Source: a virus (Duplodnaviria; Heunggongvirae; Uroviricota; Caudoviricetes). Taken from it: DNA of 9,638 nucleotides. Where the stretch lies: positions 1-9,638 of IMG/VR virus record IMGVR_UViG_2537561977_000015; one strand, 5' to 3'. Made by a program: the position numbers and the translations under genes. The notes beneath the pieces were generated by a model. That model saw nothing but the letters and a program-made list of their open reading frames with translations, had not been told where the DNA came from and searched no databases. Of the stretch, positions 1-9,226 are shown piece by piece. Numbering within the stretch: position 1 is the first letter of the stretch; each line of letters begins with the position of its first letter.

Positions 1-993
1 CTAATCGATGGACAGTTTATGGACACTTTCAGCCAGCGGATTAAAGTTGATCGCGTCCTGTAAGAAGTCCGGCGAAAAATGAGCGTACGTCATTGTCTGT
101 TGAATCGTGGCATGCCCAAGAATTCGTTGTAACGTAACAATATTTCCGCCATTCATCATAAAGTGTGTGGCAAATGTATGACGCATGACATGTGTAGCCT
201 GCCCCTTCGGCAAATCCGGTTTAACCTCCTGAAGAATCTCCCGGAACTCCAGATAATCAACCTGATACAACAACCCCGTCCGACGGGTTTTAATCAGCGG
301 CACGACCGAATCAGCCACAGGAACTGAGCGAGACTTCCCATTCTTGGTGTTAAAGAACGTCACCCGGTTGCCAACGATATGCTCTCCACGTAGTTCTGAT
401 GCTTCACGCCATCGGGCACCAGTAGAAAGACACAGAATGGCAACACGACGCGCATCACCCTCCAGTCGCTCAAGAAGCTGCTCAATCTCATCATCAGAAA
501 GAAAGGCCATTTCTGTGTTCTGAACTTTCAGTTTGCGTATACCGCGTACAGGGTTCGCGTTGTGAAAGACCTCAGCTTCAATCAGCACCGTGAACATGGT
601 AGACAAAACACATAAATCACGATTAATACTGGACGGCATTAATCCGGCCTGTAATTTCTCTGACCTATACTCGAGCATAAATTTTCGCGTCATATGACTG
701 GCACGAGGATCTCCCATTTCACGAATAACCTTCCCTAGCCTGACTCTGTAGCTATCCCCGTAAGCCTGATTACGCCCGTCAAGCATCCACCACGCATCAA
801 GCAGCTCTGATAATCGCCGCTGATCAGCTGGCTTAGCCTGCCATGGCTTGTCATGGAAGTTCTGTAACACATATTTCTCAAACTCCTGAGCCTTTGATTT
901 CAGGGTAAAGATTTTTCGAATCCGCTTTCCTTCTGCCCCCTGCGGCCTTACATCAACCTGATAACGTCCGTCTTTGAGTTGCTTAATCGACAT
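1..993 (-). CDS. int: Tyrosine site-specific recombinase (integrase), P2-phage integrase family; complete, 330 aa
   Basis: Minus-strand ORF whose stop (TAG, + strand cta) is bases 1-3 of the window. The translation carries the conserved C-terminal catalytic region of phage tyrosine integrases (...LCLSTGARWREA..., ...HVMRHTFATHFMMNGGNIVTLQRILGHATIQQTMTYAHFSPDFL...). The N-terminus MSIKQLKDGRYQVDVRP resembles P2-type integrases as I recall them. I place the start at the ATG at 991-993 (SD-like GGAGGGG upstream) rather than the TTG at 1006-1008 used in the ORF track. Confidence 0.9.
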   Translation of the reverse strand: MSIKQLKDGRYQVDVRPQGAEGKRIRKIFTLKSKAQEFEKYVLQNFHDKPWQAKPADQRRLSELLDAWWMLDGRNQAYGDSYRVRLGKVIREMGDPRASHMTRKFMLEYRSEKLQAGLMPSSINRDLCVLSTMFTVLIEAEVFHNANPVRGIRKLKVQNTEMAFLSDDEIEQLLERLEGDARRVAILCLSTGARWREASELRGEHIVGNRVTFFNTKNGKSRSVPVADSVVPLIKTRRTGLLYQVDYLEFREILQEVKPDLPKGQATHVMRHTFATHFMMNGGNIVTLQRILGHATIQQTMTYAHFSPDFLQDAINFNPLAESVHKLSID

Positions 994-1062
994 GATTAGC
1001 CCCTCCAACGGATAAATTAACTAAACACTCCTTGCGAGATGTAATTCGCTCAATGTGTATCG

Positions 1063-1410
1063 TCAGCCAACATTGCGGCCTGATCGGGGTGATTTTTGGG
1101 TAATGCCGATTGAAGGCTGATCGTCCTCCAACTGAATAGAGCCATCAAGAGAGAGAGCCGGGGCTATCTGCCCTCCGGCTTCAAATGTTTCATCTGTCGT
1201 TAACCAAAGCGCATACTTTTTGAGTCGTGAATTCTTTGTAATCTTGAACAAAATTTCACTCCCTATCCCTTCTTGTCTTCCCGTTTCGTAATATCTTTGG
1301 GTATTAACCGGAATCCCTGTAAGTTCAAAGAATTGCTTTCTTGTCAGCCCTTCACTCTTCCGGATCAATAAAATTTTCTCGCCAATACATGTTGACAGTG
1401 TCGAATTCAT
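1063..1410 (-). CDS. Immunity repressor, P2 C-repressor-like / short XRE-type HTH protein (115 aa)
   Basis: Small minus-strand ORF directly upstream of and co-oriented with int, the position of the immunity repressor in P2-like phages. The N-terminal region has an HTH-like segment (KILLIRKSEGLTRKQFFELTGIPVNTQRYYETGR) and a GQIAPAL segment that I recall from P2 C-family repressors. Family assignment is from memory, not a search. Confidence 0.7.
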   Translation of the reverse strand: MNSTLSTCIGEKILLIRKSEGLTRKQFFELTGIPVNTQRYYETGRQEGIGSEILFKITKNSRLKKYALWLTTDETFEAGGQIAPALSLDGSIQLEDDQPSIGITQKSPRSGRNVG

Positions 1411-1511: not shown

Positions 1512-2033
1512 ATGCGGGACATCATTGCCGATAAAGAGTTATCTGACACCAAACAACCTCACGCAAGTAGCGGCATTAGCGAATCCGTTGATGCCGCCAA
1601 CGACAACGAACACGAAGAAAACAAGAAAAAGCGTTCCTACAAAAAAGGAGCGACTTTACGGCTGGATGGTCCGATCGCCGGGCTTTGCTCTCTGGAAAAA
1701 GGCGCGGCATATATTGGGCTAACAAAATCTGCACTGCGCGTAGCCATTCATCGCGGTCAAATGCCGGGACATAAAACGCGCACTAACCCGGAAGATGAAA
1801 ACTCAGACGGCGTATGGTGGTTTAACGCCAAAGAGTGGGACAAGTTGGCTGATGAGCTACCAGAGTGCGAACCACCAGAATGGCACAACTGGAAAAGTTA
1901 CTGGACGTATGACCGCCAGAAAAGAAAGTTCTCTCCAGCCAACAAAGAAGACTGCCAGACCGTTAACGGAAAACGGGTTTATACAGGCAGAAGCTCAAAG
2001 CTGGAGCGACTCAAAAGTAACCAGGTCAACTAA
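1512..2033 (+). CDS. Early-operon DNA-binding protein, Cox/Apl-like (excisionase/regulator-like) with N- and C-terminal extensions, 173 aa
   Basis: First gene of the rightward operon, divergent from the repressor. SD GAGGA lies 7 nt upstream of the ATG. The internal segment GAAYIGLTKSALRVAIHRGQMP followed by a W-rich segment (GVWWFNAKEW) resembles the HTH-plus-wing layout of Cox/excisionase-type proteins. The protein is about twice the length of P2 Cox, so this assignment is tentative. Confidence 0.55.
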   Translation: MRDIIADKELSDTKQPHASSGISESVDAANDNEHEENKKKRSYKKGATLRLDGPIAGLCSLEKGAAYIGLTKSALRVAIHRGQMPGHKTRTNPEDENSDGVWWFNAKEWDKLADELPECEPPEWHNWKSYWTYDRQKRKFSPANKEDCQTVNGKRVYTGRSSKLERLKSNQVN

Positions 2034-2260
2034 ACACATAAAAATGACCAGCCATATCATCAGCGCCATTCTAACCCTTGTGTTTATTGAGATAGGCGTA
2101 ATAGCGATTTATTTTTTCGCAAGTTAACGAGACATGAAGAACGCTTTATTGATCTCAATATTGAGTACGTCGCCGCTTATGCCAAAGGGCTTTTTCCGAC
2201 TGCCATTGGTGCGGTTCTCATAGCGTTTGTTATTTGGCTCATTGAGTAGAGGCACGAAAA

Positions 2261-2671
2261 ATGAATAAGCAGCAAAAAAGCAACACCAATAACGCCCAGC
2301 TCCTAGTGCAACCGGAGGATAAAAGCCTACAGGAACAGCTTAAGTACCTAGATGAGCTGAAACACGACATTATCATCTTTCCGGACAATATTTGCGCTAT
2401 TGGACTGCAAGTATCCCCATTGCAACTTGCCAATACATATCGCCACCTGATCTCTGGGCAAATGCAAAACACGACAGATAACGAAGTGCCAGAAGAGGCG
2501 CGAAAGCACTTTCGTGATTCACTTGGCACAGAAGGGATCGCCATAAAGATACACCCTATTGCAGTTCACATTTCTTTTTATGGCACTCAATCCCCCGAAG
2601 AGGCAATCAAAAACATAATCAAAAGCCAAAACAAGATGACTGAGATAAAACGGGGCGTAGCAGCCCCGTAG
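2261..2671 (+). CDS. Hypothetical protein (136 aa), AT-rich accessory block
   Basis: ORF with a GAGG SD 8-9 nt upstream of the ATG. No recognisable motif. Its 3' end overlaps a hairpin that is shared with the convergent minus-strand gene. Confidence 0.55.
   Translation: MNKQQKSNTNNAQLLVQPEDKSLQEQLKYLDELKHDIIIFPDNICAIGLQVSPLQLANTYRHLISGQMQNTTDNEVPEEARKHFRDSLGTEGIAIKIHPIAVHISFYGTQSPEEAIKNIIKSQNKMTEIKRGVAAP
2650..2669 (-). terminator. Hairpin ACGGGGC-GTAGCA-GCCCCGT; candidate intrinsic terminator for the leftward small gene (U-run on the minus strand only)
   Basis: 7-bp GC-rich stem with a 6-nt loop read from the sequence. On the minus strand it is followed by TTTT. On the plus strand no T-run follows. 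It lies 8 bp past the stop of the minus-strand gene 2678..2857. Confidence 0.4.
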
Positions 2672-2677
2672 AGACTC

Positions 2678-2857
2678 TCAGAAAATAGTGACACTGAACC
2701 CAACAGGATACTTAGTGTTGCTTTCGTTGAGAATTTTGAACGCCAAATCGCGGATTGTTGCAGCAGGATGTTCCTGACTTACCGCCTGAACAGGTGTTTG
2801 CTCAAGGGTATCGAGAAGTTTTTTCATTTGTTCAATGACTTCTTCATGTGAATTCAT
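2678..2857 (-). CDS. Hypothetical small protein (59 aa) encoded opposite to the surrounding early genes
   Basis: Strong SD (AAGGAG) 6 nt upstream of the ATG at 2855-2857 on the minus strand. The ORF track's longer 82-aa version has an N-terminal extension (MVVCCAAFGQ...) that looks non-coding, so I trimmed it to this start. Convergent with 2261..2671 and divergent from 2989..3339. Confidence 0.55.
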   Translation of the reverse strand: MNSHEEVIEQMKKLLDTLEQTPVQAVSQEHPAATIRDLAFKILNESNTKYPVGFSVTIF

Positions 2858-2988
2858 ATGAACTCCTTTTTCAGTGGTGGTTATATCAATAGCTTTCTGG
2901 CCGAAGGCTGCACAACAAACTACCACAAAACCATGCGCCGGGCATGGCTAAAACCCGGCACTAATTCACAACAGCAGTAGGGTCTTGC

Positions 2989-3339
2989 ATGAAACAACAA
3001 AGCAATTCTTCACAACGGCGCTTCCGCAACGGCGCAGAACGCCATGCTAACCGTTTCGCTACCAGTGCATCACGTAGCAGCTCTCGCTACAGCCTGAGCG
3101 AAACACACGCAACACCGGATGGCCACGCTGTAAAACAAATCGGCGAGCACACCTGGCTGATTGAGAAAGCTGGAATCGTGGTTCACAGGTGCCCCCGCAA
3201 CCCATTTACCGGAAACCGCATTTTTGCACTGAGCAGCGGCGACAATCAGTTCGGACAGGATTTCACATTGTACGAAGCGCTACGCACGGTTGACCGCTTA
3301 ATTGCAGGACGTAGTTTTCAGCATCCACGGGGGAATTAA
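2989..3339 (+). CDS. Hypothetical protein (116 aa), Ser/Arg-rich N-terminus
   Basis: ORF at the start of a tightly packed plus-strand gene string. The SD is weak. No recognisable motif. Confidence 0.5.
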   Translation: MKQQSNSSQRRFRNGAERHANRFATSASRSSSRYSLSETHATPDGHAVKQIGEHTWLIEKAGIVVHRCPRNPFTGNRIFALSSGDNQFGQDFTLYEALRTVDRLIAGRSFQHPRGN

Positions 3340-3342
3340 CCA

Positions 3343-3597
3343 ATGGCAACAACGACAAAAAACATGGTAGAGATAGCCTCGGCCTACACTATTATCATGC
3401 ACCGGCTCATAGATAATAATGCCCGTGATGCATTAAATACGATAAAACCTTTGTCGGAAGCAAAAAGCGATATTATCAGCGGATTAAAGTCACTACAGGA
3501 ATGCGCACGCTATGCAGGTGATCACGCCGCATACATGACCATTAACGATACAATTGAGCGCATTGAATCAGGTAAACCATTAAGAGCTTTTGTTTAA
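3343..3597 (+). CDS. Hypothetical protein (84 aa)
   Basis: Begins 4 nt after the previous stop. GGGGGAA SD-like sequence upstream. AT-rich composition matching its neighbours. Confidence 0.55.
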   Translation: MATTTKNMVEIASAYTIIMHRLIDNNARDALNTIKPLSEAKSDIISGLKSLQECARYAGDHAAYMTINDTIERIESGKPLRAFV

Positions 3598-3617
3598 TTG
3601 TTTTCTGGGGAAATGCA

Positions 3618-3860
3618 ATGGGCAAAGAATATAAAACTCTCATTAACAAAGCACTTGAGCGTTTTTATTTTCGCTTAAACACATCAGGGGTCCACGCCGA
3701 ACACGCAGCCCATGATTCATTAGCAAGAGCAATCAGAAGTCTTTATGACGTACCCTTTTATGCTGACGATTTGGATGCAATTAACGAGCTTTCCGAACTC
3801 GTCTGCGCCGCAGAATGCGGAGAGCGCATTGAACCATATAAACTGGGGAATATCGTATGA
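3618..3860 (+). CDS. Hypothetical protein (80 aa)
   Basis: GGGGAAA SD-like sequence upstream of the ATG. Its stop overlaps the start of the next small ORF (ATGA). Confidence 0.55.
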   Translation: MGKEYKTLINKALERFYFRLNTSGVHAEHAAHDSLARAIRSLYDVPFYADDLDAINELSELVCAAECGERIEPYKLGNIV

Positions 3861-3970
3861 GTATATTTATATCATGGATTGTTCTGATTATTTCGGTGGC
3901 CTGCGCAATCGGGATTATGCGAATTATTAATTCAGTAAAAAAGATTGAACGCTTTTTCACTGAAGAATAA
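3857..3970 (+). CDS. Small membrane peptide (37 aa: MSIFISWIVLIISVACAIGIMRIINSVKKIERFFTEE), one predicted transmembrane helix plus a charged tail
   Basis: Not in the ORF track because it is below the size cutoff. Found by reading: ATG at 3857 overlaps the upstream TGA stop (ATGA coupling), GGGGAA SD-like sequence 7-8 nt upstream, hydrophobic N-terminal 20 residues followed by a basic/acidic tail, in-frame stop TAA at 3968-3970. Confidence 0.45.
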   Translation: MSIFISWIVLIISVACAIGIMRIINSVKKIERFFTEE

Positions 3971-4063
3971 TCGCGCAAATAAGATTTCAGGTTAAATAAG
4001 AAAATGTAAAAACAATCCGCATTCGCGGAGGTATTCGCACAAGTAAATAACGGAGATACAAAA

Positions 4064-4820: not shown

Positions 4821-5019
4821 AGAATTTACCGTCATTCGTTTTACTGCCAAGGGGCGCGAGTATGAAGTTGATGAACGCCTGGTAGACCTGGACAGAACCG
4901 CGCCGTCACGCACCGAACAAGACACTCATCACATCTATCTCACTGACGGCACTTACTTCTGCGCCACCAACGTGGTGCAGGTGAATCTTATCAGACAGGT
5001 ACAGGAGTCACGCAGATGA
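4813..5019 (+). CDS. Hypothetical protein (68 aa)
   Basis: The ORF track extends this to 4735, but the ATG at 4813 has a canonical AAGGAG SD 8 nt upstream and the upstream extension (MRTAHVSAPCTACIK...) looks non-coding. Its stop overlaps the next start (ATGA). Confidence 0.55.
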   Translation: MFREFTVIRFTAKGREYEVDERLVDLDRTAPSRTEQDTHHIYLTDGTYFCATNVVQVNLIRQVQESRR

Positions 5020-5315
5020 CCATTCTGGACTACATCGCTGCTAATCCGGGTTGTAGCGGTGGAGAAATCGCCGCTGCACTGAATACCCCAACCACAACCA
5101 TTAATGCGGAGTTACGCCGTCTCTGGCGCAGCGGTTCAGTCATAAGAAAAGAGCGCAAAACAGGCGGTCGCTTTTCTTATCAGGTAAACCCGATGCCGTT
5201 CGGGTGTAGCAACCCACTAACCCAGATGTTCAACCAGTTACTGAAGGAAGCCAGAGCATGCACAAAGCCTTTGAACGATGGATGCGCCAGCGCTATGGCA
5301 ACCGCTACGACCTGA
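5016..5315 (+). CDS. Putative winged-helix DNA-binding protein (99 aa)
   Basis: AGGAG SD 8 nt upstream. The N-terminal 60 residues (ILDYIAANPGCSGGEIAAALNTPTTTINAELRRLWRSGSVIRKERKTGGRFSYQV) have the helix-turn-helix plus beta-hairpin wing pattern of MarR/ArsR-type winged helices. The low-complexity C-terminal tail overlaps the next ORF. Confidence 0.5.
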   Translation: MTILDYIAANPGCSGGEIAAALNTPTTTINAELRRLWRSGSVIRKERKTGGRFSYQVNPMPFGCSNPLTQMFNQLLKEARACTKPLNDGCASAMATATT

Positions 5316-5404: not shown

Positions 5405-5476
5405 AACAGGTCATCGCCGATGCGCATACAAAAAAACCGCTTGCCATGCCGCAATCAGCCAGGTTACATTTCCGCT

Positions 5477-5551
5477 GCACCTCATAAAACGGGTGCCGGG
5501 ATTTCCACCCCGCTGACAAACGTAGCGCACAACCGCGCCAGCGGTTTTTTT
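5477..5551 (+). ncRNA. Candidate small RNA (about 75 nt) ending at an intrinsic terminator; speculative
   Basis: Possible sigma70 promoter (-35 TTGCCA at 5441..5446, 18-nt spacer, -10 TACATT at 5465..5470) followed by a segment with internal pairing (GGGTG/CACCC) and the terminator at 5531..5551. No protein-like ORF in this stretch. The 5' end is a guess. Confidence 0.2.
5531..5551 (+). terminator. Rho-independent terminator: AACCGC-GCCA-GCGGTT followed by a T-run
   Basis: 6-bp stem with a GCCA loop, followed by 7 consecutive T on the plus strand (5545..5551). It lies about 130 nt downstream of the last gene of the preceding operon. Confidence 0.6.
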
Positions 5552-5730
5552 GTGCGTACTGTATCGCCACGTCTTTTTCGCACACGAATTATGGTGGGGC
5601 GTACGGGGCCGACTTCGGTCGGGCCGGGTTCTGCGTTTGCCGGTTGTGGAAACCCTGTACGTCTCACCACCCCGAGTTTTCCACCTCTGGATGGTGAGTT
5701 TTCAAAACTTACACACGTAGAGGCCACATC

Positions 5731-5961
5731 ATGGCAAACCGCAAACAACAGCGCGCATACGCTGCGCGTCGTCACATCCAGACTGAAATCAACCGCAGAC
5801 TTTTCCGCGCATCACGCGTCGCGCAAATCATGCACATCAATATGCTGCATGAGCGCAGCCACGCACTATCGAACACCTATTGCGCCTCTGTTTTCAGCTA
5901 TCTGGCGGATGATCTGCACGAGCTTCAGCAGCTCATTCAGCAGCAAAACAAACTCCATTAA
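5731..5961 (+). CDS. Hypothetical small basic protein (76 aa), first gene after the structured intergenic region
   Basis: AGAGG SD 8 nt upstream of the ATG. Arg/Gln-rich helical-looking protein. Position and size resemble the small accessory proteins that precede the replication gene in P2-like phages, but I cannot assign a family from sequence. Confidence 0.55.
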   Translation: MANRKQQRAYAARRHIQTEINRRLFRASRVAQIMHINMLHERSHALSNTYCASVFSYLADDLHELQQLIQQQNKLH

Positions 5962-6033
5962 TTCCTGTTCCGGGCCTTTCCTGCACCTTGCGGCGGGAGG
6001 CCTTCGCACATCTGTAACAAGAGGATTGCCGCA

Positions 6034-6399
6034 ATGATTCTCGCCAACGACTTTCTTGAATACCTGCTCAACACAGAACGTGATCTTGCCGCTCGCGTGC
6101 GTGATCGTTATGACATGTACCTGAAATCCCTGCCTGTACCGCAGCTCGCTGACGGAAAAATTGTTATTGATGGCCGCTACATGATTGACAGCCATGAGGG
6201 AAATTACAGGCTTTACCGCATTGAAGGCGGCACCCCGTCCGTTATTGGCATTTACCAGCGCCCATCCTCTGCAATCGTCGATGTGATTGCCGACAGCATC
6301 CGCATCACACATCGCCATGCCGACACAGAAGACACCGTGCTGGAAATTCAGCGGCTGGCTACCGTCTGCCGCGACACCCTGAATGGCATGACGAAGTAA
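6034..6399 (+). CDS. Hypothetical protein (121 aa) immediately upstream of the replication initiator
   Basis: AAGAGGA SD 9 nt upstream. Compact ORF whose stop lies 6 nt before the next ATG. No recognisable motif. Confidence 0.55.
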   Translation: MILANDFLEYLLNTERDLAARVRDRYDMYLKSLPVPQLADGKIVIDGRYMIDSHEGNYRLYRIEGGTPSVIGIYQRPSSAIVDVIADSIRITHRHADTEDTVLEIQRLATVCRDTLNGMTK

Positions 6400-6405
6400 A
6401 TCACT

Positions 6406-6852
6406 ATGGCGGCAGAGTACATCAGGGACTGGCAACAACCGCGCCACGCAGTGGGGCGTGAAGGAACGGGGATCCCCGCTCCTGAATCCGCGCTTTCCTC
6501 CTGGCTGGATGCCTACCGGGCAGAGAACGAGCGCCGCCAGGAAATGGCTGATGCGGCGTTCTCCGCCACGACGCTGGGCAACCTGATTAATAAAAGCCTG
6601 GATGCACAGGAAAAACAGGACAAAACCATCACACTGGCAGGAGACGCCAGAAAACAGGCACGCGGCGCGGTGGATGAAGCCATGGCCTCGCTGCGCCTGC
6701 TGCCGTCCTATCTGCGCGATCCGCTTATTCGCCGCCTCTCTTTCCTGCGCAAAAACAGGAAGCCGATCGTCAGAAAGGCAAAAAGAGCCGACAGCAGAAC
6801 GCTATGCACGCGGAACCCTGCGCAAAATATTCGAACGTCTGGACCGCACTGA
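6406..6852 (+). CDS. Probable N-terminal part of the gene-A-like replication initiator, in a different frame from the main ORF (frame disruption near 6780)
   Basis: Protein-like translation from 6406 to about 6790, with a degenerate tail after that. The overlapping frame of 6602..9226 becomes protein-like only from about 6790. An A5 run sits at the junction (6780..6784). Confidence 0.45.
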   Translation: MAAEYIRDWQQPRHAVGREGTGIPAPESALSSWLDAYRAENERRQEMADAAFSATTLGNLINKSLDAQEKQDKTITLAGDARKQARGAVDEAMASLRLLPSYLRDPLIRRLSFLRKNRKPIVRKAKRADSRTLCTRNPAQNIRTSGPH

Positions 6853-9226
6853 CAGACACTGGCTGACACCGGGTTATCGCTCCCTTGCCGGACGTGAACG
6901 CCTGGATGATTTGCTTTACCTGCCACAGCTCAACAAGCACCAGATACAGACGCTGGCCACCATGACAGCGGCGATGTTCAGCAGCACCTTCGAAACACTC
7001 TGTGATGGCTTTGGTGCCAGAGATGGCGAGCTGACCATGGAGGTGGCGCTGAAGGCATATCAGATGCTGGCACGCATGGCGTTACATCTGCACACCATGC
7101 CGCCGCATTATGACGCACTGACAACAGACAAGGACCGGAGGAACGCACCGGATACGGAACTGCTGCCGGGCGCAATTCTTCGCCTGACCTGTGCGGAATG
7201 GTGGAAACGCAAACTGTGGCTGTTACGTTGCGAGTGGAGAGAAGAACAACTCCGCGCCGCCTGTCTGGTTTCCAGAAAAACATCACCCTATCTGAGCCAG
7301 GACGCGTTAAGCGCGTTTCGCGCACAGCGCGAGAAAACACGCGATTTCCTGAAAAGTTTCATGCTGGAAAATGAAGACGGGTTCACGATTGATCTCGAGA
7401 CGGTGTATTACGCGGGAGTAAGTAACCCGGTTCACCGTAAGGCAGAAATGATGGCCACCATGAAGGGACTGGAACTTCTGGCCGAAGCCCGTGGCGACAG
7501 AGCGGTGTTTCTGACTGTCACCTGCCCGTCAAAATACCACGCAACAACGGAGAACGGTCATCCGAACCCCAAATGGAACGGGGCCACCATGCGCGACTCC
7601 AGCGATTACCTGGTTAACACGTTTTTTGCGGCGGTCCGCAAAAAACTGAACCGCGACGGTCTGCGCTGGTATGGCATCCGCACGGTGGAGCCTCACCATG
7701 ACGGCACTGTGCACTGGCATATGATGGTCTTTGCACATCCGGACGAGATTGAAACCATCGTGTCCCACGTCTGCGATATTGCCATTCAGGAAGACCGCCA
7801 CGAGCTGGGCGATGACATAACTCCGCGTTTTAAGGCGGAGTACGTAGACGGCTCAAAAGGCACACCAACCAGCTACATCGCCACCTACATCGGAAAGAAC
7901 CTGGACAGCCGCGCCGTGGATGGCATCGACCCGAAAACGGGCAAGCCACGCGTTGACCACGAAACCGGAAAATCAATGGCCGAGAGCGTGGAACGCGCCA
8001 TCGGCTGGGCGCGCCTTCACCGGGTCCGCCAGTTCCAGTTCTTTGGTATCCCCTCCCGTCAGGTGTGGCGTGAACTGCGCCGCCTTGCCAGCCAGATGGC
8101 ACGCAACCCGGAAGGCCCGCAACGGCTGAAGGATGACGCAATGGACGCGGTACTCGCTGCCGCTGATGCCGGATGTTTTGCCACCTACATTGAGAAACAG
8201 GGTGGCGTACTTGTTCCACGCAAAGACTACCTGATTCGCACCGCCTACGACCTCGCAGATGAGCTGAACGATTACGGTGAACAGAGCGTACAGATTTACG
8301 GGATCTGGTCGCCGCTCATTGGGGAGTCTTCCCGCGTATGCACGCATCCGGATAACTGGAAGCTGGTAAGACGCAAACCGGAAGCGGAAGACAGCGCCCG
8401 CGAAAATGGTTTTGACCTTCAGGGCGGCCCTGCCGCCCCTTGGACTCGTGGCAATAACTGTCCCCGTGTACAGGAAACGAACAACAACGGGACAGAACAG
8501 CCGGAAGAACGGCCAGCACCGTGGCCGCAGCTCCCTGACGGCGTTGAAGTGAACGAATGGATGCGCTCACTGAAACGGCACGAACGCCGGGCGCTGATGC
8601 GTTCGCTTCGTGACAAACAGGCAAAAAACAGCAGTGATGAAATGCAGAACTGGACGCAGAGCCGCAAACAGCCGCGACCTTTGCCTGATAACCACGAATT
8701 ACTCGCTAAAGAATGGCGGGAGTCTGCTGAATCTCTCGGCATGCATATCGGTGAACAACAGATGCAGCACTTGTTACGGGGCGGCAGTCTGTACGTTGAC
8801 GGCAGCATCATTGCACCGCAGGGATTTAAAATTGTACGCAAACCGGATACCCGCCCGGACAGCCGAATCACGCAACTCTGGCAACGCCTGAGCCGTAATC
8901 ACGGCGTAAGCAGCACGGAGATCCGTCATAACCCTGTCGCCAGCTATCTGGAACAGCTGGGGACATCAGACCCCGAAGCAGCCGCACGCCTGGCATCCAT
9001 ACTTCAGCAGGACCAGAACACCATGAAAACACCCGTTACCGTGCTTTCTGACATGCTGCGCGCCATCCGCGACGCAGAGCACGCACAGAGAATCAGTGAA
9101 ACCACTGAACGCGCCCGCCGCAAAGCAGACCTGCTGCGGGGTGGCCTGACCAGTGGAAACAAAAAACAGACAGAAACGGGACTCACGAATCCCGTAAATG
9201 AGCAAAAAACGCGCAGCGATATATGA
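6602..9226 (+). CDS. Rolling-circle replication initiator, P2 gene A-like HUH replication endonuclease (coordinates are those of the longest ORF; true 5' end uncertain)
   Basis: HUH metal-binding motif (TVHWHMMVF, nt 7712..7720 encode H-W-H) followed about 50 residues later by the paired catalytic tyrosines (TSYIATYIGKN, Tyr codons at 7874 and 7886). This is the signature arrangement of phiX174/P2 gpA-type Rep proteins. Other segments (LTVTCPSKYH, GIRTVEPHHDGT) resemble P2 gpA as I recall it. The first 180 nt of this frame look non-coding. Confidence 0.85.
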   Translation: MHRKNRTKPSHWQETPENRHAARWMKPWPRCACCRPICAIRLFAASLSCAKTGSRSSERQKEPTAERYARGTLRKIFERLDRTDRHWLTPGYRSLAGRERLDDLLYLPQLNKHQIQTLATMTAAMFSSTFETLCDGFGARDGELTMEVALKAYQMLARMALHLHTMPPHYDALTTDKDRRNAPDTELLPGAILRLTCAEWWKRKLWLLRCEWREEQLRAACLVSRKTSPYLSQDALSAFRAQREKTRDFLKSFMLENEDGFTIDLETVYYAGVSNPVHRKAEMMATMKGLELLAEARGDRAVFLTVTCPSKYHATTENGHPNPKWNGATMRDSSDYLVNTFFAAVRKKLNRDGLRWYGIRTVEPHHDGTVHWHMMVFAHPDEIETIVSHVCDIAIQEDRHELGDDITPRFKAEYVDGSKGTPTSYIATYIGKNLDSRAVDGIDPKTGKPRVDHETGKSMAESVERAIGWARLHRVRQFQFFGIPSRQVWRELRRLASQMARNPEGPQRLKDDAMDAVLAAADAGCFATYIEKQGGVLVPRKDYLIRTAYDLADELNDYGEQSVQIYGIWSPLIGESSRVCTHPDNWKLVRRKPEAEDSARENGFDLQGGPAAPWTRGNNCPRVQETNNNGTEQPEERPAPWPQLPDGVEVNEWMRSLKRHERRALMRSLRDKQAKNSSDEMQNWTQSRKQPRPLPDNHELLAKEWRESAESLGMHIGEQQMQHLLRGGSLYVDGSIIAPQGFKIVRKPDTRPDSRITQLWQRLSRNHGVSSTEIRHNPVASYLEQLGTSDPEAAARLASILQQDQNTMKTPVTVLSDMLRAIRDAEHAQRISETTERARRKADLLRGGLTSGNKKQTETGLTNPVNEQKTRSDI

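Follow-up and report, generated by a model that had tools for sequence, protein, structure and literature searches.

Morons, in the sense of Hendrix and Juhala, are extra genes of temperate phages that come with a promoter and a terminator of their own. P2-like prophages are among the commonest in Escherichia coli and its relatives, and their two or three known hotspots have yielded many defence systems. Leftward promoters or antisense RNAs inside early operons are also familiar, such as lambda pRE and oop, 186 pE and P22 sar, and these are core lysis-lysogeny circuitry found in all relatives that either feeds the repressor or is noncoding. The moron or hotspot positions described for P2-like phages are gpA-Q (old/tin), G-FI (Z/fun) and tail-CI (PMC3573123; bioRxiv 10.1101/2024.10.15.618418), and acr-aca loci combine a conserved promoter containing inverted repeats with interchangeable small genes at a fixed phage position (compare PMC11065993). 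Here we analyse an opposite-strand locus in the left end of a P88-like prophage (Xuanwuvirus, Peduoviridae; P2 family), represented by the 9,638 nucleotides (nt) of IMG/VR record IMGVR_UViG_2537561977_000015 and called the window below, meaning the whole stretch of DNA that was analysed. Its subject is a gene for a 59-amino-acid (aa) protein of the KYP family, read against the rightward early operon, together with a conserved upstream region, the head, which precedes this gene and many unrelated small genes (cargos) in other phages. With somewhat better than an even chance, the locus is an autonomously expressed moron-type accessory cassette lying reversed in the early (Pe) operon, and its parts are as follows.

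2640..2669, minus strand: terminator-like hairpin, with stem 2650-2656/2663-2669 and loop 2657-2662, then TTTATCTCAG (2649->2640)
2678..2857, minus strand: gene of the 59-aa KYP-family protein, recognised from family searches, intact haplotypes and the ratio of nonsynonymous to synonymous polymorphism (pN/pS)
2863..2868, minus strand: Shine-Dalgarno (SD) sequence AAGGAG, 5 nt (TTCAT) 5' of the ATG at 2857
2858..2911, minus strand: predicted 5' leader with hairpin P2, the CA-rich stretch ATAACCACCAC and the SD, placed from the position of the -10
2891..2909, no strand assigned: hairpin P2, AGCTTTC-TGGCC-GAAGGCT, a conserved structure with a variable stem sequence
2917..2925, minus strand: candidate extended -10 TGGTAGTTT (TGnTAnnnT), the single cargo-strand match, with a predicted start near 2910
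2921..2960, no strand assigned: nearly invariant 40-nt core TACCACAAAACCATGCGCCGGGCATGGCTAAAACCCGGCA, from comparison of many loci
2931..2947, no strand assigned: dyad B, CCATGC-GCCGG-GCATGG, a palindrome pointed out earlier, with arms 2931-2936/2942-2947
2937..2959, no strand assigned: dyad A, GCCGGG...CCCGGC, with arms 2937-2942 and 2954-2959, from an RNAalifold consensus

The initial annotation of this DNA, made from its letters alone, had offered a self-contained moron cassette as one of several readings, and this one has held up: there is an own SD, a minus-strand terminator-like hairpin and an upstream candidate promoter, and the whole is present or absent as a unit in relatives. The cassette shares with morons also its anti-lytic orientation and variable cargo; unlike theirs, its GC content is not markedly low. 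In contrast to the P2-like hotspots, its slot is within the early operon, with cox on one side and DUF4761 or gpB on the other, and neither of the two sources lists this position (PMC3573123; bioRxiv 10.1101/2024.10.15.618418). It also differs from them in its tiny cargo (27-160 aa), in the one nearly invariant regulatory head that is shared, and in matching no defence profile, PADLOC having found no family among the 59-aa protein, the neighbouring 136-aa protein and the counterparts of both in locus L001. With acr-aca loci the likeness is an analogy of architecture only, a conserved dyad-bearing head in front of a single slot for varied small proteins, unannotated and in many cases acidic; the cassettes have no conserved helix-turn-helix (HTH) 'aca' gene, contain one gene where the cargo was followed as far as a terminator (window, L001, SEN5 and L134; the Yersinia head precedes two) and show no anti-defence homology. 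Like pRE, oop, pE and sar, the cassette would place a leftward promoter among rightward early genes and make a transcript antisense to the early mRNA. Unlike them it is optional and protein-coding and ends at a separate terminator 1.2 kb short of the repressor gene, which rules out an establishment promoter of the pRE or pE kind.

The head carries most of this argument. In BLAST searches only about 2895-2968 matched P2-like phages of Salmonella and Yersinia, and the flanks did not. An exact 25-nt string from the core occurs in 35 viral contigs, one copy in each, the core was found in 39 distinct contexts among the related loci collected (given L numbers here), and 65 of 5,426 complete E. coli genomes match the gap between the 59-aa gene and DUF4761. 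The sources are E. coli, E. albertii, Salmonella (SEN4/5), Yersinia, Pantoea, Erwinia, Kosakonia, Izhakiella and Symbiopectobacterium, to which metagenome contigs are added, and across dozens of loci with unrelated flanks the core is identical or almost so. Read along the plus strand, a head consists of the complemented start codon and SD, a G/T-rich stretch, hairpin P2, the core (TACCACAAAA-CCATGC-GCCGG-GCATGG-CTAAAA-CCCGGC-A) and then unrelated sequence that leads into a plus-strand gene. Conservation ends at CCCGGCA, the right flanks are unrelated between contexts, and the plus-strand gene beyond them differs between phages (DUF4761, cox or gpB). In every instance where it could be located, the minus-strand start with its SD lies 45-90 nt left of the head, and an AGGA or GGAG equivalent stands 5' of the cargo start.

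At least eight unrelated minus-strand cargos lie behind this same head, with KYP genes in many of the loci. The others include a 78-aa protein, 151/158-aa proteins of phrog_5286, an acidic 39-aa peptide with a 156-aa protein (phrog_6315) behind it, and proteins of 71 aa, 95 aa (phrog_10549), 74 aa and 58 aa; scans of eight other cargo proteins against Pfam and PHROGs gave unknown function or nothing. The sister KYP subtype B (L001) has a head with different dyads, and among 43 distinct DUF4761-upstream regions without the core string only those with a subtype-B cargo retain TACCACA; in the remaining core-less regions the plus-strand genes are packed without a gap or arranged in another way (overlapping divergent start codons in L061). 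P88, P88_4B11 and many DUF4761-anchored IMG/VR loci have neither a minus-strand gene nor a head at the slot, and other relatives carry another KYP subtype or other cargo there. The cassette is thus present or absent among close relatives, between conserved genes, as morons are. Because the head is absent where minus-strand cargo is absent, it belongs to the cargo and not to the early operon. Sequence comparison shows the cassette to be modular, with head and cargo assorting independently. An exact-sequence literature search over 8 million papers found no match for the core string or for 'DUF4761'.

A more ambitious reading, which we hold only tentatively and well short of an even chance, is that the head, with its 40-nt core, two mutually exclusive covarying dyads, extended -10 and covarying hairpin, is a dedicated portable device marking an antisense cargo slot across the P2-family phages of Enterobacterales, and that its dyads are an RNA or single-stranded DNA switch, or a site for a common factor, gating tiny conflict proteins. 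The cargo pool considered for this device comprises the KYP family and at least seven other families of uncharacterised small proteins.

In E. coli G1/2 (L097, 2395-2436) a head with intact SD and ATG leads into a 13-codon remnant of an open reading frame (ORF), which looks like decayed or replaced cargo. Its neighbours are a plus-strand gene of 87 aa and a minus-strand gene of 151 aa (phrog_28512). In Yersinia phage vB_YenM_42.18 (L096, 1841-2568) a 221-aa plus-strand ORF is annotated that is probably spurious, the head pointing to the minus-strand 39-aa and 156-aa (phrog_6315) genes, and the annotated gpB start of this phage (2536) falls within the conserved core. Two heads (L145 and L146) stand on one 79-kb contig of E. 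albertii NBRC 107761 (NZ_BBMY01000003.1), one with a standard core and one with a compensated CCATGT/ACATGG core; they presumably come from two different P2-like prophages.

The 59-aa gene itself is present as described in the initial annotation, on the minus strand against the early operon and with a canonical AAGGAG SD. In the ORF listing its frame extends to a GTG at 2926 (82 aa), but orthologues are called from the codon matching the ATG at 2857. Frameshifts or stops in relatives had been named beforehand as grounds for discarding the ORF, and it proved intact in eight distinct haplotypes of the window's subtype, with 16 variable sites and no indels. The pN/pS of the ORF is 0.32, the lowest among the six frames, compared with 0.27 for the neighbouring gene. 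A word-indexed search gave just two close clusters (90-93% identity), and the related phage vB_EcoM-569R5 carries, at the corresponding site and in the same orientation, a 63-aa ORF that is not alignable by BLASTP; a variant in the IMG/VR locus L035 links the window and vB_EcoM-569R5 types. A profile built from these three variants retrieved 14 proteins, and when 1.84 billion representatives were scanned exhaustively with HMMER, 19 matched at E<=1e-3, of which about 15, counted as family clusters at 50% identity, are full-length (53-79 aa).

The family proteins, of 55-63 residues, are 17-44% identical and keep length, motif, position and strand. Their alignment begins with M-[SN]-x-[DE]-[EK]-K-[IV]-I and continues with a helix rich in L, a loop that contains P, TIRxLA, K-Y-P and a short tail, with M1, L38, K49 and P51 invariant and Y50 nearly so (F in one member). 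KYP genes come from E. coli, E. albertii, Shigella, Salmonella and Yersinia, and every one of them lies antisense within the early region of a P2-like element; the member in Salmonella phage SEN5 is phrog_35031; tblastn of P0020 against phage records gave no match to KYP relatives. The exact 59-aa and 136-aa proteins already stand in public databases as 'hypothetical protein' (E. coli, Shigella flexneri). The ORF is short, rare and an ORFan in curated libraries, and the window's allele is in none of the 5,426 complete E. coli genomes, as a chance open frame in a noncoding spacer would lead one to expect. Such an origin is scarcely credible in view of the conservation of length, motif, position and strand at this level of divergence, the eight haplotypes without indels, the lowest pN/pS of six frames and the canonical SD with its spacing. 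On comparative evidence, the 59-aa ORF is a real, conserved gene of a previously unannotated family.

Downstream of the gene, the hairpin ACGGGGC-GTAGCA-GCCCCGT has a 7-bp stem, six of whose pairs are G-C, and lies within the final seven codons of the 136-aa gene, 8 nt beyond the minus-strand stop codon (2678-2680). A terminator scan flags it on the minus strand (TTTTAT 3'), and on the plus strand no T-run was found 3' of the hairpin at 2650-2669. It had been taken for a terminator shared with the convergent gene; the hairpin is there, but with its T-run on the minus strand only it is neither shared nor bidirectional, and it should therefore stop the transcript of the small gene and not that of the early operon. 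A one-way terminator of this kind fits an early operon that needs read-through. Among the eight haplotypes the stem is invariant and the loop is GTAGCA, GTAACA or GTGGCA, and in L001, SEN5 and L134 the small gene is likewise followed by a comparable GC-rich hairpin. At the pattern level only, the cassette thus has the terminator of its own that is expected of a moron.

For a promoter, the head is the only shared site able to supply one, because conservation stops at CCCGGCA. On the cargo strand TGnTAnnnT occurs exactly once in each of 13 representative heads, always between the dyads and P2, and four of these heads (main, L001, L134 and L135) are unrelated in sequence. The forms seen are TGGTAGTTT in the window and TGGTAATTT, TGGTATTTT, TGGTATCGT, TGCTATCTT, TGTTATGTT and TGGTACTAT elsewhere, a comparison that points to TGGTAGTTT as the -10 of a promoter. 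In minus-strand order, the cassette would begin with the two overlapping dyads (2931-2959), followed by the extended -10 (2925->2917) without a -35, and its transcript would start near 2910, at the base of the hairpin. It would continue through the CA-rich leader, the strong SD and the 59-aa gene to a hairpin that would end leftward transcription only. The head would in this way be a portable expression module driving many unrelated cargo genes.

In folds, P2 lies directly 3' of the -10 hexamer. Across 32 heads in a plain MAFFT alignment 78.7% of its cells are paired, and both partners have changed in 5 of the 10 outer pairs; its covariation score is 0.28, compared with 0.17 for shuffles (0 of 500 reach the observed value) and 0.07-0.12 when slid. 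P2 is weak in the window, whose leader has a z score of +0.85 against shuffles, and some classes go down to -6. When 12 heads were folded, the CA-rich stretch 5' of the SD was unpaired in most, and several minimum-free-energy structures, the window's included, had weak pairing near the SD.

Other candidates for the function of this region were considered and dropped. A sigma-54 reading of TGGC-N10-GC in the core is ruled out by an A-run spacer, within dyad A, that varies by 6-8 nt, and an Ogr-type TGT-N12-ACA activator site is absent from the sequence. An integron attC-like P2 is ruled out by the inverted GTT...AAC order and by many classes without it. The 9-codon leader peptide that abuts dyad A in the window is not conserved elsewhere, and a long-range helix P1 (TTTGTGGT/ACCACAAA) is not general, being absent from L001 and L134.

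The dyads were in part already recognised. The palindrome CCATGC-N5-GCATGG had been placed at 2929..2945; its sequence is correct and its actual position is 2931-2947, 2 nt to the right. The overlapping CCGGG/CCCGG repeats reported in the gap are likewise present, as GCCGGG (2937-2942) and CCCGGC (2954-2959). Within the window alone, one 6-bp dyad in 131 nt is unremarkable. Dyads A and B share G2942 and are mutually exclusive, and core variants recovered by degenerate scans change both arms together. In dyad B, T-A replaces C-G as the innermost pair in L146, L174 and L181 (E. albertii and metagenome; at least two cargos), and C-G replaces T-A as the fourth pair in L161 (Candidatus Symbiopectobacterium), where the innermost pair of dyad A has also changed, from G-C to A-T; both single-change intermediates were also found (L139, L160 and L176). 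This covariation is a matter of small counts, with 20 of 500 and 12 of 500 shuffles reaching the observed scores. Compensatory changes are what a hairpin predicts and a homodimer operator does not.

This bears on the proposal that the gene encodes a small repressor of the downstream string, with the palindrome as its operator. A DNA-binding regulator acting through the palindrome on its own gene or on the DUF4761-to-gpA string would suit a palindrome lying between divergent starts; small phage regulators such as Cox and Apl exist, and some family members are basic, with an isoelectric point (pI) of 9.0-9.6. The identical palindrome, however, precedes at least eight unrelated cargos, the dyads of subtype B (L001) differ, and the paired changes in the arms fit a hairpin. 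Since the palindrome is independent of cargo identity, it is not the 59-aa protein's own operator. The protein has just two predicted helices, with no HTH or other DNA-binding domain and no profile match; the window's copy is acidic (pI 5.1), and the family spans pI 4.4 to 9.6. DNA binding by the protein is unlikely, and we give the regulator as a whole very little credence.

The dyads might alternatively be the essential part of the head and act as RNA, with TGnTAnnnT a by-product of a U-rich tract. In one form of this idea, dyad B with UUUUGUGG would be a terminator and dyad A its antiterminator in a minus-strand transcript arriving from the right of 2960; in another, the dyads would be a processing site in the plus-strand early transcript or a Rho shield for a 317-nt untranslated stretch. 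It draws on the three compensatory changes, on the mutual exclusivity of the dyads, on a variable A-run spacer that suits a loop and on the plus strand being certainly transcribed from Pe, and the theme of a hairpin by the -10 with a competing upstream segment can be drawn in the unrelated heads L001, L134 and L135 as well. Yet a cmscan of the whole window against Rfam 15 (E<=1) gave no match in 2858-2988, only isrK, C4 and a chance IRES elsewhere; the independent events are few and shuffles do reach the scores; nothing is conserved right of the core that could be a shared promoter; and the 9-codon leader ORF of the window is absent elsewhere. Dyad A, moreover, forms before dyad B and is more stable than it, which would make read-through the default, and the plus strand has no T-run after either dyad. 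We consider this explanation unlikely. Plus-strand early RNA, minus-strand RNA from another promoter and DNA are candidate settings for the action of the dyads; their arrangement as an H-type pseudoknot is ruled out by loop lengths (L2 = L3 = 0).

Two AlphaFold2 (AF2) models were made (predicted local distance difference test (pLDDT) 65 and 69); that of the 59-aa protein with pLDDT 69 has a helix at 3-20, a loop, a helix at 35-49 and then a C-terminal tail. The best PDB sequence matches are designed helical hairpins (6egc, E=0.002; 5j0k, E=0.11), and variants of Rop are among the weak Foldseek matches (E above 4). Rop/Rom and designed helical hairpins dimerise into four-helix bundles. The KYP protein resembles them in its roughly 60 aa and predicted helix-loop-helix; it has no sequence homology to Rop/Rom, the fold matches are not significant and imply no RNA-binding role, and the KYP motif and C-terminal tail have no counterpart there. 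The product is predicted to be a soluble helix-loop-helix protein; its most likely mode of action is the binding of a partner protein, and it may do so as a dimer that forms a Rop-like four-helix bundle. By analogy, its role would most likely be in phage-host or phage-phage conflict, such as superinfection exclusion, anti-defence or host modulation.

The neighbour of the cassette on this side is the convergent gene.

2261..2671, plus strand: 136-aa early gene, convergent neighbour outside the cassette, with stop codon TAG at 2669-2671, of a diverged family

The members of this family are 18-26% identical, with homologues in L001 (2535-2957), L035, L021 and L134 (2680-3090) and invariant residues D20, L23, L27, L30, L56, G92, P99, V102 and F106; Pfam, PHROGs, NCBIfam and PADLOC gave no match to the protein, and a PDB profile search with the family was empty. 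The terminator hairpin of the cassette encodes the final codons of this gene in both the window and L001. The 59-aa and 136-aa proteins could be a functional pair of the antidote/effector, addiction or immunity kind, in which the small protein made in the lysogen neutralises the early protein of its own or a superinfecting phage. The families do stand tail-to-tail in most loci, and their subtypes co-vary over four subtype pairs (window, L001, L035 and L134). Co-variation of this kind would, however, follow from linkage alone, and each family also occurs without the other, KYP in SEN5, L099 and L130 and the 136-aa family with other cargo in L021, L098 and L101. Neither protein has a toxin or antitoxin domain by Pfam, NCBIfam or PADLOC, nor a defence profile match, and the convergent layout, which is not an operon, and the lack of strict co-occurrence are atypical of type II toxin-antitoxin systems. 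A functional pair is therefore quite improbable, and the addiction-type module suggested in the initial annotation finds no footing.

For the moron-type cassette, a timing of expression is suggested by its orientation. It is co-oriented with the repressor and integrase genes and head-on against Pe, and for this reason we infer that its expression probably falls in periods of Pe silence, which means the lysogen and perhaps the very start of an infection, and that firing of Pe probably reduces it through collision and antisense RNA. Orientation, together with the viability of cassette-less relatives, suggests that the cassette is expressed from the repressed prophage and is dispensable for lytic growth. 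The same head-on geometry would also suit a cassette working mainly in cis, as RNA or by the act of transcription, with the ORF secondary, either because the convergent promoter throttles Pe read-through to the replication genes or because an antisense RNA is directed to the 136-aa gene. Face-to-face promoters are an established regulatory idiom of P2 and 186, and the head is far more conserved than the cargo. The cargo ORFs, on the other hand, are conserved families with strong SDs and signs of purifying selection, the terminator limits antisense read-through, and the many functional relatives without a cassette show that it is not core circuitry. A role in cis is accordingly judged to have a low probability.

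Several observations weigh against an autonomously expressed moron-type cassette. As to its promoter, TGnTAnnnT is a motif of five positions that shows no enrichment across the window (10 occurrences against 13.9 expected), and a sigma-70 scan requiring a -35 found nothing in 2858-2988. In several heads P2 starts 0-1 nt after the hexamer, putting the canonical +1 inside its 5' arm, which would be odd for a purely 5'-terminal mRNA hairpin. Counts of G.U versus A.C show no consistent strand for P2 or the dyads, and the compensatory changes in dyads lying 5' of the proposed start suggest a nucleic-acid structure that the promoter model leaves unexplained. As to the protein, Pfam, NCBIfam (E<=0.1 and E<=1) and PHROG gave no function match and no HTH, Foldseek of the AF2 models against BFVD and PDB gave nothing at E<1, and the confidence of the model is modest (pLDDT 69). 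The cargo families are all without known function, so the 'conflict' role is an analogy and not a finding. The identity of the promoter, the timing of expression and the mode of action of the protein are inferences.

The surroundings of the cassette are those of a P2-family early region. The window itself begins at the integrase gene, pdxB-usg-truA adjoining such prophages in related loci, and the rightward string of small early genes is followed by the replication endonuclease gpA.

1..1008, minus strand: integrase
1063..1410, minus strand: C-type repressor
1512..2033, plus strand: Cox-family protein
2989..3339, plus strand: DUF4761 gene, in the rightward early string
3618..3860, plus strand: DUF4754 gene, in the rightward early string
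5016..5315, plus strand: MarR-like gene, in the rightward early string

These rows follow the gene order of the window. In the C-cox intergenic region (1411-1511) there is a near-consensus rightward promoter, TTGACA-18-TAAAAT at 1392-1421, faced on the minus strand by two TGnTAnnnT motifs, TGGTACGCT (1494->1486) and TGTTATCCT (1510->1502). This is the expected face-to-face Pe/Pc layout, and Pc may be of the same extended -10 style as the cargo promoter. In L003 and L008 a second opposite-strand gene (3549-4034; 161 aa, no Pfam match) stands deeper in the early operon, and the early region may have more than one antisense cargo slot.

Two genes of the window are disrupted. A 68-aa membrane-protein gene of relatives is cut to 28 codons (2042-2260, plus strand) by a 1-nt deletion in a T-run near 2119. 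The gpA gene (region 6406-9226, plus strand) is split, with residues 1-128 in frame 1 (6406-6789) and residues 131-940 in frame 2 (6794-9223); compared with phage vB_EcoM-569R5, one nucleotide is deleted near 6750 and another near 6794. This may point to a defective prophage or to indel errors in the assembly. The two RNAs matched by Rfam stand in tandem on the plus strand, an isrK Hfq-binding sRNA at 5477-5551 (65.5 bits) and a C4 antisense RNA at 5587-5674 (79.2 bits), just 5' of a 76-aa 'Derepression' (PF25738) ORF (5731-5961), and the region looks like an RNA-controlled antirepressor unit in the style of P1 c4/ant. A 205-aa ORF that overlaps both RNAs (5420-6037; 'Phage_ASH' elsewhere, under the Pfam cut-off) may be spurious.

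For the window itself the outcome is modest: the 59-aa gene is real and already annotated as a hypothetical protein, and the conserved head upstream of it is the main finding. For the P2 family, the locus would add a further slot with a short signature, TACCACAAAACCATGCGCCGGGCATGG, as a simple handle for harvesting tiny cargo proteins which homology tools miss and whose annotation is often wrong, as with the 221-aa ORF and the gpB start inside the head of the Yersinia phage. The head would be a compact natural expression unit, with a candidate promoter, a structured leader, a strong SD and a one-way terminator, that tolerates head-on placement in a strong operon, and it is of interest for transcriptional interference in the P2/186 switch region.

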